64,000 nt of DNA. It comes from a virus (lineage: Duplodnaviria; Caudoviricetes). The stretch lies in IMG/VR virus record IMGVR_UViG_3300017716_001697, positions 1 to 64,000 of that record; one strand, given 5' to 3'. Positions 1-33,780 of the stretch are shown piece by piece; position 1 is the first letter of the stretch, and each line of letters begins with the position of its first letter. A program made the translations under genes and the position numbers. The notes below the pieces were generated by a model. It was not told the DNA's origin. It worked only from the letters and a program-made list of their open reading frames with translations, and made no database searches.

Positions 1-1353
1 AACGGGGTTTCTCCGTGGATTTTAACTCGCGCTTCAGATTTTGATGGCACTCCTACTACAGAAATTCAAGCAGGCGACTCGACATATATACAAGAAGGTA
101 CACTTGTAGGTACGCAATGGGTGAAGATTGCAATAGGTACGGGCGCCCCCGATGATCATATTGTTATAGGTACCGACCCGATTGTATTCAGTCAATTTGC
201 AGGCGCCGGAACATACACTGCTGGTACAGGCATTGATATTTCGAGTAATGTTATTTCTAATACAGGTGTTCTAAGCTTGATCGCCGGTGCAAATATTTCT
301 ATATCCGGAACAACAGGTAATGTGACAATTAGTACAACAGGCACAGTACCGTCATCAACTACTTCGTCTAATCTTGCCGGTGGTGCACCTGGATCAGTTC
401 CATATCAGTCTGCGGCCAGCACCACATCGATGCTAGCAGCAGGTACAACATCAGAAGTGTTGATTAGCGGAACGACACCTAGTTGGACAAATACACCTAC
501 ATTAACTGGTACAAATTTTACTGGCATACCAAACGGTGCATTATTGAATAGTTCTGTCACTATAGGTTCGACATCCGTATCATTAGGTGCCACAACAACA
601 ACGTTGACAGGACTCACTTCTGTATCGGCTACTACGTTTATTGGCGCAATATCCGGCAATTCTACGACAGCCACCACAGCGGTTAATTTAGATGGTGGCG
701 CAGCAGGTTCAGTTCCGTATCAAAGTGCACCTGGCACCACTAGCATGTTAGCAGCTGGTACATCAACACAAGTTCTTGTCGGTGGACTTACACCACTTTG
801 GACAAATAGTCCTACGTTGACTGGTACAAATTTCACAGGCATTACAAATTTTGGATTAGTGAATAGTTCATTAAGTGTCAACGGTGTTACAATTAGCCTA
901 GGTGGTAGCGGTACAGTCGCAGCGGCAGCTGGCACATTAACTGGCACAACACTTGCGGCTAATGTTGTTTCGTCTAGTTTAACAAGCGTTGGTACGTTGG
1001 CAAGTTTAACAGTTTCGGGCACCGCAACAGCTTCGTCGTTTAATGCTACCTCTACAAAGAGAGTTAAGAAATCAGTTAAGAATTTAGGTAAAGAATATCT
1101 AAATAAGTTTAAATATTTAAAGCCACGCGAATACGATAGAAAAGACTATAATGCACACGAATTTGGATTCATTGCTGAAGAAATGGCATTAGTGTATCCT
1201 GAGATAGTGGGTAAGGATGCTACCGGCAAACCTAGCGGCATAGATTACGGAAAACTATCTACCATTCTTACTGCTAAGTTGCAAGATCAACAGATGCTTA
1301 TTGAAACATTGCAAGCACAGATGGCTGTAATTATGACAAAATTGAAAGTTTAA
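1..1353 (+). CDS. Tail fibre protein with C-terminal intramolecular chaperone (peptidase S74-like); 5' end lies outside the window
   Basis: Frame open from base 1 (NGVSPWILTRASDFDG...); Gly/Thr/Ser-rich repeats; C-terminal S-KRVKK...GFIAEEM...GIDYGKL plus coiled coil. Confidence 0.85.
   Translation, partial: NGVSPWILTRASDFDGTPTTEIQAGDSTYIQEGTLVGTQWVKIAIGTGAPDDHIVIGTDPIVFSQFAGAGTYTAGTGIDISSNVISNTGVLSLIAGANISISGTTGNVTISTTGTVPSSTTSSNLAGGAPGSVPYQSAASTTSMLAAGTTSEVLISGTTPSWTNTPTLTGTNFTGIPNGALLNSSVTIGSTSVSLGATTTTLTGLTSVSATTFIGAISGNSTTATTAVNLDGGAAGSVPYQSAPGTTSMLAAGTSTQVLVGGLTPLWTNSPTLTGTNFTGITNFGLVNSSLSVNGVTISLGGSGTVAAAAGTLTGTTLAANVVSSSLTSVGTLASLTVSGTATASSFNATSTKRVKKSVKNLGKEYLNKFKYLKPREYDRKDYNAHEFGFIAEEMALVYPEIVGKDATGKPSGIDYGKLSTILTAKLQDQQMLIETLQAQMAVIMTKLKV
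370..900 (+). repeat. Internal ~105-aa tandem repeat in tail fibre
   Basis: NLAGGAPGSVPYQSA...WTNTPTLTGTNFTGI at 370 recurs as NLDGGAAGSVPYQSA...WTNSPTLTGTNFTGI at 685. Confidence 0.85.
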
Positions 1354-2626: not shown

Positions 2627-3135
2627 TTGACACTACATATAGTTGATGTTACATTAGCTGCTTGATACATTGTTTTATGGTGATGCAGATAGACTTTAAA
2701 GGCAACCCCCTGAATACATTGAAGGTTGACACCTATCTAAAACGATGTTACATTAGTAGCTTGATACAAATTATGTAGGACACTATAACAAAACATTAGC
2801 TACCGCTAATTTGCAACAGTATATTATGGTGATGCACTAAATAGACACGGTGCGTGAGACGATAAAGAAGACGGTTGACACCTATCTAACGCACTGTTAT
2901 AATGAGATTATAGATACAGAGTTTTTATGCGGAATGTATGCTACCGTGTAGAAGTAAATGAAAAGAGAGCATATCGATCATGTCTACTCTGTATCTTACT
3001 AGTTTTGGTGTGTTTGACAACGTTTTTTAATGTTGTTACAATACAAGATGATAAATAAAAGTGTAGACAAGAATATATCTGTTTCTTAGAAGATTACTTG
3101 AATAACTTGACAGATTACTATACTACTGTTAAACT
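2627..3135 (+). promoter_or_regulatory. Array of five sigma70-type promoters
   Basis: TTGACA-N17-(TACATT/TACATT/TATAAT/TACAAT/TAAACT) at 2627, 2726, 2875, 3014, 3107. Confidence 0.8.
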
Positions 3136-10021: not shown

Positions 10022-10176
10022 CGCGAGATAAAGACCGTTTGGGACGGGGACCGGATTGTTGACCGGCGTCGGATAAAGCAACGAGCTGCGGTGACTTATA
10101 GAAGGGCCCTTTTATTTGTTGCTTAAAATTTCAGTACGCTCCGACTTCAGTGGTTCGATTCCACATCTTGCGGCCA
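10022..10176 (+). tRNA. Giant tRNA-Asn(GTT)-like with ~90-nt variable-arm insert
   Basis: Acceptor CGCGAGA/TCTTGCG plus GCCA; loop TTGTTGA; T arm; folded insert. Confidence 0.55.
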
Positions 10177-10180
10177 AATT

Positions 10181-10277
10181 TTGTTTAGTGTAATGGTAGC
10201 ACGGGGAAGTCCGAGACACGGAAGTGGAGTAGGCAATCAAATGCCCTGAGGTGGTTCGATCCCACCAGCAAATTCAA
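10181..10277 (+). pseudogene. tRNA-like element with replaced anticodon arm
   Basis: D arm AGTGTAATGGTAGCAC and T arm GGTGGTTCGATCCCACC; no CCA. Confidence 0.45.
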
Positions 10278-10278
10278 T

Positions 10279-10621
10279 TTCAACATTCGAGCTAACGCTG
10301 GCAACAGAGGAAGTTCGGGACAAGCGCCAAGGGCGTGTGGGAGAGTGGTTATTTGATGGGGCATAGTGTCGGCCGGCTCAAATCTAATACGGAGTTGTTA
10401 GAAGCCAAGCAGAGATTTATCATCAAGCTAGATCCGCAAGGATGACAAAAGGTTCCTGAGACGGGTTCAACTCCCGGATGCTCCACCAAATAACTACTTG
10501 TTACACCACCGTGATACAGCTTGCAACACAAACAGAACCTGGGAACTCTTGGCTTATAGGTTCGGGTTGTGGCAAAGATTAATGTTAGCATAGAACAGAA
10601 TCCCGGCTACGGAATGTTGAA
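10279..10621 (+). ncRNA. rnpB: RNase P RNA (type-A catalytic domain)
   Basis: P1, P2 (GCTAAC/GTTAGC), P3, CR-I GAGGAAGTTCGGG, P5 CAAGC/GCTTG, P6 GCCAAG/CTTGGC, P15-16 with GGT, CR-IV AGATTAAT, CR-V ACAGAATCCCGGCTA. Confidence 0.85.
10358..10488 (+). ncRNA. Ala-acceptor tRNA/tmRNA-like domain nested in the RNase P RNA
   Basis: GGGGCAT/ATGCTCC with G3-U70, ACCA, GAC-GGGTTCAACTCCC T arm. Confidence 0.7.
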
Positions 10622-10629
10622 AACTTATA

Positions 10630-10707
10630 TGCTCGTCTACGCTAATTGGTAGTGCGACCTGTTTCAAACACAGATGGTTCTCGGTTCGAATCCGAGGTCG
10701 AGCACCA
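10630..10707 (+). tRNA. tRNA-Leu(CAA), short variable loop
   Basis: Loop TTCAAAC; 5-nt variable region; CCA. Confidence 0.75.
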
Positions 10708-10711
10708 CATT

Positions 10712-10804
10712 TGATTTATAGACAAACGGAATTCATGTACAGATACTTGATCAGCGGGCCCTGCAACGCTGTAAGTGACAACGCTGTATCTTCTCCCTAA
10801 ATCA
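10712..10804 (+). ncRNA. 'stem-TA...C-stem' element
   Basis: TGATTTA-TA...C-TAAATCA with inner helices. Confidence 0.4.
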
Positions 10805-10981: not shown

Positions 10982-11029
10982 GGGCCGCCTTAAGTTTCTA
11001 TTTGACTATATACCCAGTCCGGTCCACCA
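10982..11029 (+). ncRNA. 48-nt Ala-type minihelix RNA
   Basis: GGGCCG/CGGTCC with G3-U70 and ACCA. Confidence 0.45.
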
Positions 11030-11299: not shown

Positions 11300-11328
11300 T
11301 TGACATTACTGTAAATTACGTATATAAT
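11300..11328 (+). promoter_or_regulatory. sigma70-type promoter
   Basis: TTGACA-N17-TATAAT. Confidence 0.8.
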
Positions 11329-11339
11329 AAATACTACAC

Positions 11340-11413
11340 GGGCTGCTTCATGCTTTCAAGTAGAGAATACTTGGGCCGTCTAACAGTCGGGTCGCGCCCG
11401 TCGCGGTCCACCA
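11340..11413 (+). ncRNA. tRNA-sized Ala-acceptor RNA with non-canonical arms
   Basis: GGGCTGC/GCGGTCC with G3-U70 and ACCA, just after a promoter. Confidence 0.55.
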
Positions 11414-14029: not shown

Positions 14030-14058
14030 TTGACACTCAGTAGAAACACTAGTATAAT
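14030..14058 (+). promoter_or_regulatory. sigma70-type promoter
   Basis: TTGACA-N17-TATAAT. Confidence 0.8.
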
Positions 14059-30052: not shown

Positions 30053-30526
30053 ATGAACAAGATATTCGCACTATCGATTGTTATAAGTTTATTGTGCCAT
30101 ATCGGTGTTGTTATATCTGCGATTACACCGCAAGAACCGATTAGTACTAGTGTTACAGCGCCAGAGAACCGAATGGCAATTAAGCTATTACCACCAGAGC
30201 AGTTAGCAACGATACGACCAGCATTTTTAAAATCTGATGAATATTATAAGCCGACGCACCATCCGTATAGCAAAGAAGGGATTTGTGAAGGCAAGGATAA
30301 GAATTACATCGGTATTGGCATGATGATTCAGCCCGGAACACGGTTGGTAATTAATGTGCCAGAGATGTATCCTGCGTATCGAGCAGGCATTCGGGTAAAT
30401 GATGTCATTGTGGACCCGTACGGTCCTGTAATTGACCGTGCCGGTTATATTGAATTCGGGGTAGAACGGGACAATGTTATATCTCGTGTACGAATCAAGG
30501 CAGAAAAGATATGTTATACTGGATAG
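30053..30526 (+). CDS. Membrane-anchored PDZ-like protein
   Basis: N-terminal hydrophobic segment; PAYRAGIRVNDVI. Confidence 0.55.
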   Translation: MNKIFALSIVISLLCHIGVVISAITPQEPISTSVTAPENRMAIKLLPPEQLATIRPAFLKSDEYYKPTHHPYSKEGICEGKDKNYIGIGMMIQPGTRLVINVPEMYPAYRAGIRVNDVIVDPYGPVIDRAGYIEFGVERDNVISRVRIKAEKICYTG

Positions 30527-30554
30527 TTGACACCTTAACGCTAAGTAGTATAAT
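30527..30554 (+). promoter_or_regulatory. sigma70 promoter of tmRNA
   Basis: TTGACA-N16-TATAAT. Confidence 0.75.
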
Positions 30555-30560
30555 AAAGGT

Positions 30561-30848
30561 ACTGTTGTAATCCCTTCGAAGCGAAGGCAGGCAAGACGCG
30601 GGTTCGAATCCCGCCAGGTCCACCAAAATCATATTCGAAAAATAAAATCCATAACACGTTATGGTGTGAGTATGATTCTGATGGGCCTGCTCCGGAAATC
30701 GATTGCGTGAGATAGTAGAGACGGCAACACGAGAGGCGATGGACGTAATCCAAGCAAAACTAGTAAATGCAAACGCAGATACATTCGCTCTTGTAGCCTA
30801 AGAAACTCAAAGCTGAGGTAGGACTTACCTTATAACCAAAACAACCAA
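30561..30848 (+). ncRNA. ssrA: Circularly permuted two-piece tmRNA
   Basis: Acceptor piece ends GACGCGGGTTCGAATCCCGCCAGGTCCACCA (30625); hairpin spacer; coding piece starts GGGCCTG (30683); tag ANADTFALVA* at 30769-30801. Confidence 0.92.
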
Positions 30849-30849
30849 T

Positions 30850-30872
30850 GGGGGCTTCGGCCCCTATTTTTA
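30850..30872 (+). terminator. Terminator after tmRNA
   Basis: GGGGC-TTCG-GCCCC plus T-run. Confidence 0.85.
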
Positions 30873-30918
30873 TGAATATAATGGTGTTTATTATATTAAA
30901 AATATAGATAAATATAGG

Positions 30919-33704: not shown

Positions 33705-33780
33705 GCGCCTTTAGCTCAGTTGGTAGAGCAGCGGATTCTAAATCTGTAGGTCAGGGGTTCGAGTCCCCTATCGCGCACCA
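33705..33780 (+). tRNA. Amber-suppressor tRNA (CTA)
   Basis: GCGGA-TTCTAAA-TCTGT anticodon arm; canonical D and T arms; CCA; two acceptor mismatches. Confidence 0.8.

Follow-up and report, generated by a model that had tools for sequence, protein, structure and literature searches.

The first 64 kb (hereafter the window) of IMGVR_UViG_3300017716_001697, a complete 364,576-bp IMG/VR phage genome with direct terminal repeats from a freshwater sample, encode on the plus strand (10279-10621) a miniature ribonuclease P (RNase P) RNA, and a second small RNA is embedded in one of its peripheral hairpins. In the interpretation that we favour, and consider probable, the embedded RNA is a discrete 131-nt gene (10358-10488, plus strand) of the alanine type, resembling the tRNA-like domain (TLD) of transfer-messenger RNA (tmRNA) and mounted on a 12-bp stem nested in the ribozyme. 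That the element is a real, conserved nested gene is close to certain, and it is very likely an independent cassette rather than a surrogate for the specificity domain (S-domain) of the ribozyme. As far as our searches reach, such a nested arrangement has not been described: full-text searches of the literature turned up no publication that deals with a phage-encoded RNase P RNA, with an RNA nested inside one or with the 131-nt RNA.

At a relaxed Rfam threshold, positions 10279-10621 align end to end with the RNaseP_arch model (27.8 bits, E 4.9e-6), leaving a 197-nt unaligned block at the place of the S-domain. This best match in the clan lies under the gathering cut-off of the model (84), and the gathering score of the bacterial model RF00010 is not reached; such sub-cut-off scores, for the RNase P and tmRNA models alike, are leads and not classifications. 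Relatives were retrieved from IMG/VR through the P4 15-mer GAGGAAGTTCGGGAC followed 140-300 nt later by ACAGAA..CCCGGCTA, which returned many contigs. Six full-size relatives with the same unusual P4 15-mer score above the RF00010 gathering score (124-189 bits), and all of them lie in viral tRNA arrays. The remaining P4 15-mer relatives are progressively reduced in size and, since a minimal relative has no RNase P match in Rfam at E<=1, this family of miniature RNase P RNAs falls outside current Rfam models.

An alignment of 10 short relatives outlined an architecture in which P2, P3, P5, the P6 pseudoknot, a 4-bp P7-like stub, P15 and P16 are all 100% paired, each with at least one covarying pair, and in which P1 is 80-100% paired, with two rows shifted by MAFFT. 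The window gene fits every helix of this alignment (P1-P6 and P15-P16, including the P4 and P6 pseudoknots). Its P1 5' strand CAACATTC (10281-10288, plus strand, as for all features of the gene), read from the sequence, pairs with 10612-10619. P2 pairs GCTAAC (10291-10296) with GTTAGC (10584-10589), with compensatory changes at four of six pairs in the 10 relatives, and encloses the P3 hairpin CTG-GCAA-CAG (10298-10307), for which UA, AU and GC variants occur. The P4 5' strand AAGTTCGGG (10311-10319), with its bulged U, forms a pseudoknot with CCCGGCT (10602-10608); it is invariant in the family, and the P4 motif is also found in the RF00010-positive viral RNase P RNAs. Two covarying pairs mark P5 (CAAGC, 10321-10325, with GCTTG, 10519-10523), and compensatory changes at 4/6 pairs mark the P6 pseudoknot, formed by CCAAGGG (10327-10333) and CTCTTGG in the P16/17 loop (10546-10552). 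The segment from 10524 to 10571 comprises J5/15 (CAA), the covarying helices P15 (CAC/GTG) and P16 (GAACCT/AGGTTC), and the L15 internal loop (AAACA/GGGTT), whose GGT (10565-10567) is the presumed equivalent of the class A CCA-binding site, as in E. coli M1 RNA. It is followed by a near-invariant segment (10572-10601) made up of J15/2 (the J18/2 equivalent) GCAAAGATTAAT, the P2 3' strand and J2/4 ATAGAACAGAAT. Elements of M1 RNA that have presumed counterparts here are the adenosines of J5/15, the GGU of L15 and the J18/2-J2/4 strand.

The S-domain (P7-P14, with its tRNA-elbow-binding T-loop modules) is represented just by the 4-bp P7-like stub, in which GTGG (10337-10340) pairs with CCAC (10506-10509), with AU/GC covariation, at the base of a variable arm, here termed site 1, where the S-domain would start. 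The catalytic core measures ~190 nt. A preliminary description of this locus had placed the element inside an RNase P RNA, and the full-length Rfam alignment, the covariation within the family and the RF00010-positive relatives all bear this out. The flanks of the element within 10279-10621, located among the tRNA-like genes of an array, are hence the genuine catalytic domain of a phage-encoded RNase P RNA, of bacterial class A descent and devoid of both S-domain and P18.

Two observations concern the wider family. A 437-nt contig from two metatranscriptome libraries (X19 and X20) includes, right behind the 3' end of a tRNA, a related miniature RNase P RNA whose site 1 carries an insert of 26 nt; this hints at transcription of the family and does not prove it. 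The contig was also considered as a spliced form of the window gene and rejected as such, being a related gene with its own 26-nt insert. In addition, a 360-kb contig encodes a full-size phage RNase P RNA (L079:11461-12108, minus strand) whose S-domain is broken by ~350 nt with an open reading frame (ORF) ending in ...CANCHRKEHYVDG; an HNH-type motif recognized by eye suggests that this could be a homing-endonuclease insertion within the ribozyme gene.

The element at site 1 of the window gene rises from a carrier stem in which the 5' strand AGTGGTTATTTG (10344-10355) pairs over 12/12 bp with the 3' strand CAAATAACTACT (10487-10498), as read from the sequence, from minimum free energy (MFE) folds and from covariation. 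Two linker nucleotides, A10356 (-2) and U10357 (-1), directly precede the bond at 10357/10358 where RNase P is predicted to cleave. The 131-nt RNA is supported by its match to the ends of the tmRNA model, by seven homologs and by a free-standing copy. It opens with the acceptor 5' strand GGGGCAT (10358-10364), which pairs with ATGCTCC (10478-10484) and in which G3-U70 is invariant and the fourth pair is G-C or G-U, and it closes with A73 (10485) and an encoded CCA (10486-10488). The T arm CGGG-TTCAACT-CCCG (10462-10476), preceded by GAC, has a stem of four Watson-Crick pairs plus one non-canonical pair and occurs elsewhere with the loops TTCGAAT, TTCAAAT and TTCGATT. The components listed in the preliminary description (12-bp helix, 131 nt, G3-U70, ACCA, GAC with a TTCAACT T arm, and U at -1) were thus all recovered at these positions, together with the partial sequestration of the CCA in the flanking helix, as C75 and A76 double as the first two bases of the carrier stem 3' strand. 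MFE folds recover the carrier stem, the acceptor and the T arm (z = -3.2 and -3.05 against shuffles).

Positions 10358-10488 match the two ends of the tmRNA model (RF00023) at the relaxed Rfam threshold, with a score (16.5 bits, E 1.8e-4) below the cut-off of 47, and combine the defining features of a TLD, namely a G3-U70 acceptor, A73-CCA and a T arm without an anticodon arm. ARAGORN reports no tmRNA here, its only tmRNA call being 30533-30892, and neither ARAGORN nor RF00005 calls a canonical tRNA-Ala cloverleaf at 10358-10488. A coaxial acceptor/T-arm stack, a pyrimidine at -1 and a 3' RCCA, the features expected of an RNase P substrate, are kept in all seven copies. The insert therefore has every sequence feature of what had been proposed from the outset, a putative RNase P substrate with alanine identity.

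The interior of the element (~90 nt), for which nothing matching was found in Rfam, consists of two hairpins and a strictly conserved strand. Hairpin A (10375-10406) has an outer stem GGCT/AGCC and an inner stem CTAATA/TGTTAG. The single-stranded 25-mer AGCAGAGATTTATCATCAAGCTAGA (10408-10432), identical in 7/7 copies, leads into hairpin B (ATCC-GCAA-GGAT, 10432-10443), with a GNRA loop that reads GAAA in L130. No second copy or complement of the 25-mer was found in the 364.6-kb genome at up to 6 mismatches (<=6), and an exact 24-mer of it is absent from both strands of 185,579 species genomes. A putative helix 2 analogue joining 5' GUGUCGG with 3' CCUGAGAC was rejected, as a C-to-A change lacks its compensating change, and a likeness of the 25-mer to the ribozyme's own J18/2-P2 strand, seen by eye, was too weak to claim. 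An antisense ORF (10349-10591, 80 aa) is regarded as an artefact, because it spans the variable module and relatives carry unrelated inserts at that site.

Copies of the module are present on seven contigs, the phage genome itself and six other metagenomic phage contigs, and are 82-90% identical. A covariance model built from them (R1) scored the seven homologs at 145-162 bits and detected no further copy in 38 related loci. The stems vary in a compensatory manner. The inner stem of hairpin A is swapped wholesale, being CUAAUA/UGUUAG, CUAUC/GAUAG (L021, L121) or GUUUAC/GUAAAC (L131, L132); hairpin B appears as AUCC/GGAU, ACCC/GGGU or ACUC/GAGU, and the T stem as CGGG/CCCG or, in L123, UGGG/CCCA. 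A(-2), a pyrimidine at -1, G1, G3-U70, A73 and CCA are invariant in 7/7 copies, the free one included. The preliminary description would have been refuted by lack of cleavage together with loss of the acceptor and T-arm features, or by assembly chimerism; the features are conserved, and the assembly is sound. G3-U70 and ACCA are invariant and the T stem covaries among the seven copies, and assembly chimerism is excluded by an independent 33.6-kb Logan contig, perhaps from the same sample, that covers 10100-10800 unbroken, and by the same nesting in contigs from other samples. Chance occurrence is likewise excluded, as six other contigs carry the element with compensatory substitutions. A search with a gapped pattern (TCCACCA plus the site-1 flank) returned just L021, L121 and L123, plus 14 chance matches in coding DNA; a further candidate, L133, was also a chance match and not a module copy.

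The module occupies three peripheral positions of the ribozyme. It sits at site 1 in the window gene and in L021 and L123; in L130 it follows CCGTGATAA, at a second site between the P7 stub and P5; and in L131 and L132 it caps a hairpin before the GAATGATAG junction, a third site, in a much more divergent ribozyme whose core identity is about two-thirds (58% and 73% in its two halves). The carrier stem accompanies the module at all three sites as AGTRRYTATTTG, with compensatory GC/AU and GC/UA changes. The remaining copy (L121:773-905) is free-standing, the last gene of a tRNA array; it is devoid of the carrier stem and retains A(-2), the pyrimidine at -1, G3-U70, A73 and CCA. Judged by its distribution, the stem with its RNA behaves as a putative movable cassette, known from three peripheral ribozyme positions and one stand-alone copy. 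The question of whether homologous phage genes share the insertion thus receives a divided answer: L021 and L123 carry it at site 1 and L130-L132 at other sites, and minimal members are without an insert.

Site 1 itself is hypervariable. L066, L124 and L128 have no insert, just CGAAAGCG, a 10-11-nt hairpin, and unrelated inserts of 100-150 nt on long perfect stems are found in other members. In L045 the site holds a tRNA-like element without CCA, and in L121 a different Ala-type minihelix of the same design (12-bp stem, 2-nt linker, G3-U70, ACCA). Nine members (L005, L034, L048, L057, L064, L069, L080, L095 and L125) have instead a 45-nt insert of two direct repeats (AAATTTACTTTGGTATT...), which forms no hairpin and is unexpected where all other members have a helix. 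The other site inserts gave no Rfam match at E<=0.01. The site-1 hairpin is, to judge from these inserts, a general landing pad for several kinds of small RNA.

A further pair of sequences, L130:745-850 (plus strand), nested at site 1, and L121:1070-1160 (minus strand), free between tRNA-Ser genes, have in common GCAGAGCCTGACTGAAACGGGCAT near the 5' end and TTTCAGTCTGC at the 3' end; matched by eye and unaligned, they would be a second small RNA that is both nested and free. Short CCA-ended minihelix RNAs, in which an acceptor stem is combined with a T arm or other hairpin and many of which have G3-U70, were also seen free in tRNA arrays (L123:286-333, plus strand; L121:~925-978, minus strand; L131:5839-5928, plus strand; window 10982-11029 and 11340-11413), one of them directly upstream of a ribozyme. 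Phages of this group seem to hold a whole repertoire of anticodon-less alanine-type acceptors.

The free-standing ortholog indicates that the 131-nt RNA presumably works as a molecule of its own. Since this ortholog exists, release of the nested copies from the ribozyme is a reasonable inference and, since the end features are kept identically in both, the nested copies would be matured to the same ends as the free one. In the route envisaged here, the whole ribozyme would be co-transcribed with the tRNA array, and RNase P would cut in trans between U10357 and G10358, either as the host holoenzyme or as the phage RNA joined by host RnpA. A second endonuclease would cut after CCA10488, freeing an alanylatable RNA and leaving the ribozyme as two pieces joined by ~10 bp of the stem together with P1, P2, P4, P5 and P7. 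Because the phage has no RnpA gene, a host protein would be needed for the ribozyme holoenzyme. The two pieces (79 and 133 nt) cofold into all native nested helices, with ~-19 kcal/mol gained on association and the P4/P6 pseudoknots uncounted, and the modelled two-piece ribozyme would be thermodynamically stable. Once free, the RNA may act like TLD-only tmRNA fragments, binding SmpB, AlaRS or EF-Tu, with the invariant 25-nt single strand as its specific effector part.

These steps do not carry equal weight. The balance tips slightly towards an RNase P cut at 10357/10358, and full release of the element, leaving a two-piece ribozyme, falls somewhat short of probable. A tentative and rather less likely generalization is that these phage RNase P RNAs are split genes, in which cleavage, in trans or in cis, frees an alanine-accepting effector and yields a non-covalent two-piece enzyme. 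The earlier idea that release would leave a ribozyme in two pieces accordingly survives in part: the free-standing ortholog and the stable cofold of the pieces speak for it, and the route by self-cleavage in cis is unlikely.

Several points weigh against a nested gene that is released in this way. No RNA run containing the module was listed, and the runs aligned with the locus consisted of contigs, in which RNA ends do not show. Carrier-stem pairing of the leader and of C75-A76 should make the nested element less suitable for RNase P than a free pre-tRNA would be. To release the 3' end, an endonuclease would have to cut right after the CCA within a helix, for which no enzyme can be named, and trimming by an exonuclease would cost the ribozyme its 3' half. 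A simple role as an anti-tmRNA decoy is possible and not compelling; it is awkward because the phage itself encodes a complete two-piece tmRNA and no SmpB, and both SmpB and RnpA were looked for in the phage genome and not found. Finally, the L130 contig ends inside the module, so that nesting at the second site is known from the 5' side, and no longer version of this contig was found.

The same base pairing of leader and CCA, in a quasi-continuous stack of 12 + 8 bp, is what might be expected if the module were never excised and stayed in the RNase P RNA as a covalent expansion segment, be it as an inert, selfish cassette ended by inverted repeats or as an arm tethering the ribozyme to SmpB, the ribosome or modification enzymes. 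The carrier stem is indeed shaped like terminal inverted repeats and moves with the module among sites, a 3' endonuclease site is not evident, and site 1 also holds non-tRNA-like inserts on long perfect stems with no obvious processing signals (L031, L063, L072, L130, L132). However, the free ortholog needs free ends, the nested copies keep the same end features (A(-2), Y(-1), G1, G3-U70, A73, CCA) under selection, and an encoded ACCA would be needless in a purely structural arm. We therefore regard permanent retention of the module as unlikely.

The preliminary description had suggested a fusion of ribozyme and substrate that cleaves itself in cis, with cleavage acting as an on/off switch. 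The ingredients are present, as the catalytic core is intact, an L15 GGU that could bind the CCA is in place, and module and ribozyme are found together at three sites. Ribozymes that lack an S-domain have weak substrate binding in trans. Engineered conjugates of RNase P RNA and pre-tRNA do cleave in cis (PMC2475606, PMC3378863). The geometry nevertheless speaks against it. The scissile bond would lie 2 nt away from the outer tip of a rigid 12-bp helix projecting from the periphery, at site 1 roughly where the elbow of a substrate would be placed rather than its 5' end, and the geometry differs among the three insertion sites while the module and stem stay unchanged. The same RNA, moreover, exists as a free-standing gene, and no sign of a regulatory switch was seen. 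Self-cleavage as an activity switch is hence improbable and is left unsupported.

The 131-nt RNA could also be read as a miniature tmRNA without pseudoknots, with hairpin A in the place of PK1, the invariant strand as tag frame and hairpin B as helix 5. The order of TLD, hairpin, single strand and stop-codon hairpin does mimic tmRNA. Of the three frames checked over the seven copies, two are open in all of them: CAG AGA TTT ATC ATC AAG CTA GAY ... TGA, with the TGA at the same place in 7/7, and AGC AGA GAT TTA TCA TCA AGC TAG, which lies wholly inside the 25-mer. None of the three is convincing, however. A 1-nt indel upstream (AAGCAG vs AGCAG) shifts the frame of GCC, the only GCN resume-codon candidate; L021 and L121 no longer have a stop in the GCA frame; the 25 nt contain zero synonymous changes though stems turned over among lineages; and the variable "codons" are covarying hairpin-B pairs. 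The predicted C-termini (...QRFIIKLDPQG, ...SRDLSSS) are not hydrophobic or degron-like, neither helix 2 nor a pseudoknot was found, and the low Rfam score and lack of an ARAGORN call given above point the same way. These points speak for an invariant strand that would act at the RNA level rather than as a coding sequence, and leave the mini-tmRNA with little likelihood.

The further suggestion that the element replaces the S-domain, its T-loop/elbow recognizing substrate, draws on the exact P7-P14 place that it occupies in this genome, and can practically be discarded, since the site is empty in close relatives (L066, L124 and L128, with a hairpin of ~10 nt) or filled with unrelated inserts, and the same module sits at two other ribozyme positions and outside the ribozyme.

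The nested small-RNA gene lies in a region rich in stable RNAs, the window containing 43 tRNA genes and one permuted tmRNA gene. The ribozyme gene with its element is part of a tRNA array, and a tRNA-Leu gene begins 10 nt downstream. Strong consensus promoters are located at 3014, 11300 and 14030, and there is none just upstream of or within the ribozyme gene; for this reason, co-transcription of ribozyme and element with the array would be the simplest reading. Two of these promoters (11300-11328 and 14030-14058, plus strand) are perfect 12/12 sigma-70 consensus sequences (TTGACA-17-TATAAT) inside the tRNA/small-RNA region and suggest possible sub-operons driven by host RNA polymerase. The circularly permuted two-piece tmRNA gene (30513-30870, plus strand; RF01850, 145 bits), assigned by ARAGORN to 30533-30892 with the tag ANADTFALVA*, is of the betaproteobacterial type, which hints at a betaproteobacterial host. 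A tRNA with a CTA anticodon at 33705-33780 (plus strand), labelled "Pyl" by ARAGORN, is an amber-suppressor tRNA, which may point to TAG recoding in late genes. No GenBank phage matched the ribozyme or 24 kb of the window by BLAST, leaving no cultured relative for annotation.

RNase P RNA belongs to the small number of universal ribozymes, and how small and how modular it can be in nature has long been asked. The present case adds evidence for a phage-encoded RNase P RNA of catalytic domain only, and shows that other small-RNA genes dock in its peripheral hairpins, among them a tRNA mimic of the alanine type that bears every mark of an RNase P substrate. The 343-nt transcript also offers a simple system in which to ask whether a natural ribozyme can work as two base-paired chains, and what role a TLD-like RNA with an absolutely conserved 25-nt strand plays in infection, for example through interference with host trans-translation. 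Were the split-gene proposal true, production of an effector would be coupled to maturation of a ribozyme, and this would be the first natural RNase P RNA to host and process a functional RNA gene inside itself.

In its fold, the phage ribozyme shares with bacterial class A RNase P RNA (RF00010, E. coli M1 RNA) P1-P6, P15-P16, the bulged U of P4, the J5/15 adenosines, the L15 GGU and the ACAGAA-CCCGGCU strand. It differs in lacking the S-domain and P18, with a core of ~190 nt that scores under every Rfam RNase P gathering score, in being phage-encoded within tRNA arrays, and in having peripheral hairpins that host foreign RNA modules. A natural RNase P RNA with a reduced S-domain is known in the type T RNA of Thermoproteaceae (PMC3579882).

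For the element, the closest counterparts are the TLD of tmRNA and the "TLD only" tmRNA-like gene on record in mycobacteriophage DS6A (PMC4131195), with which it has in common a G3-U70 acceptor, A73, CCA, GAC plus a T arm with a TTCRANY loop and the absence of an anticodon arm. Like the DS6A gene it is phage-encoded and far shorter than tmRNA, and RNase P and AlaRS would both be expected to accept it. PMC4131195 cites Mao et al. 2009 for strong inhibition of tmRNA by TLD-only molecules, perhaps through titration of SmpB. In contrast to the TLD, the element has a conserved ~90-nt interior that could be matched to no part of tmRNA, its D-loop analogue is unlike the one in the phage's own tmRNA, and it is nested in another RNA gene; the DS6A gene is compared here by its published description.

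Enzyme and substrate-like element on one chain also characterize the engineered self-cleaving conjugates of M. jannaschii RNase P RNA and pre-tRNA (PMC2475606, PMC3378863). In these, a flexible linker lets the 5' end of the substrate reach the active site, whereas the phage element is an internal insertion on a rigid 12-bp stem; the phage case is, moreover, natural, conserved and found at several sites, and known here from sequence. A last parallel is offered by permuted two-piece tmRNA, of which the same phage carries an example at 30513-30870. There, as proposed here, a stable RNA becomes two base-paired chains by an internal excision marked by tRNA-type recognition. In permuted tmRNA, however, the excised part is a spacer, whereas in the phage RNase P RNA it would be a functional RNA, and its host a ribozyme.

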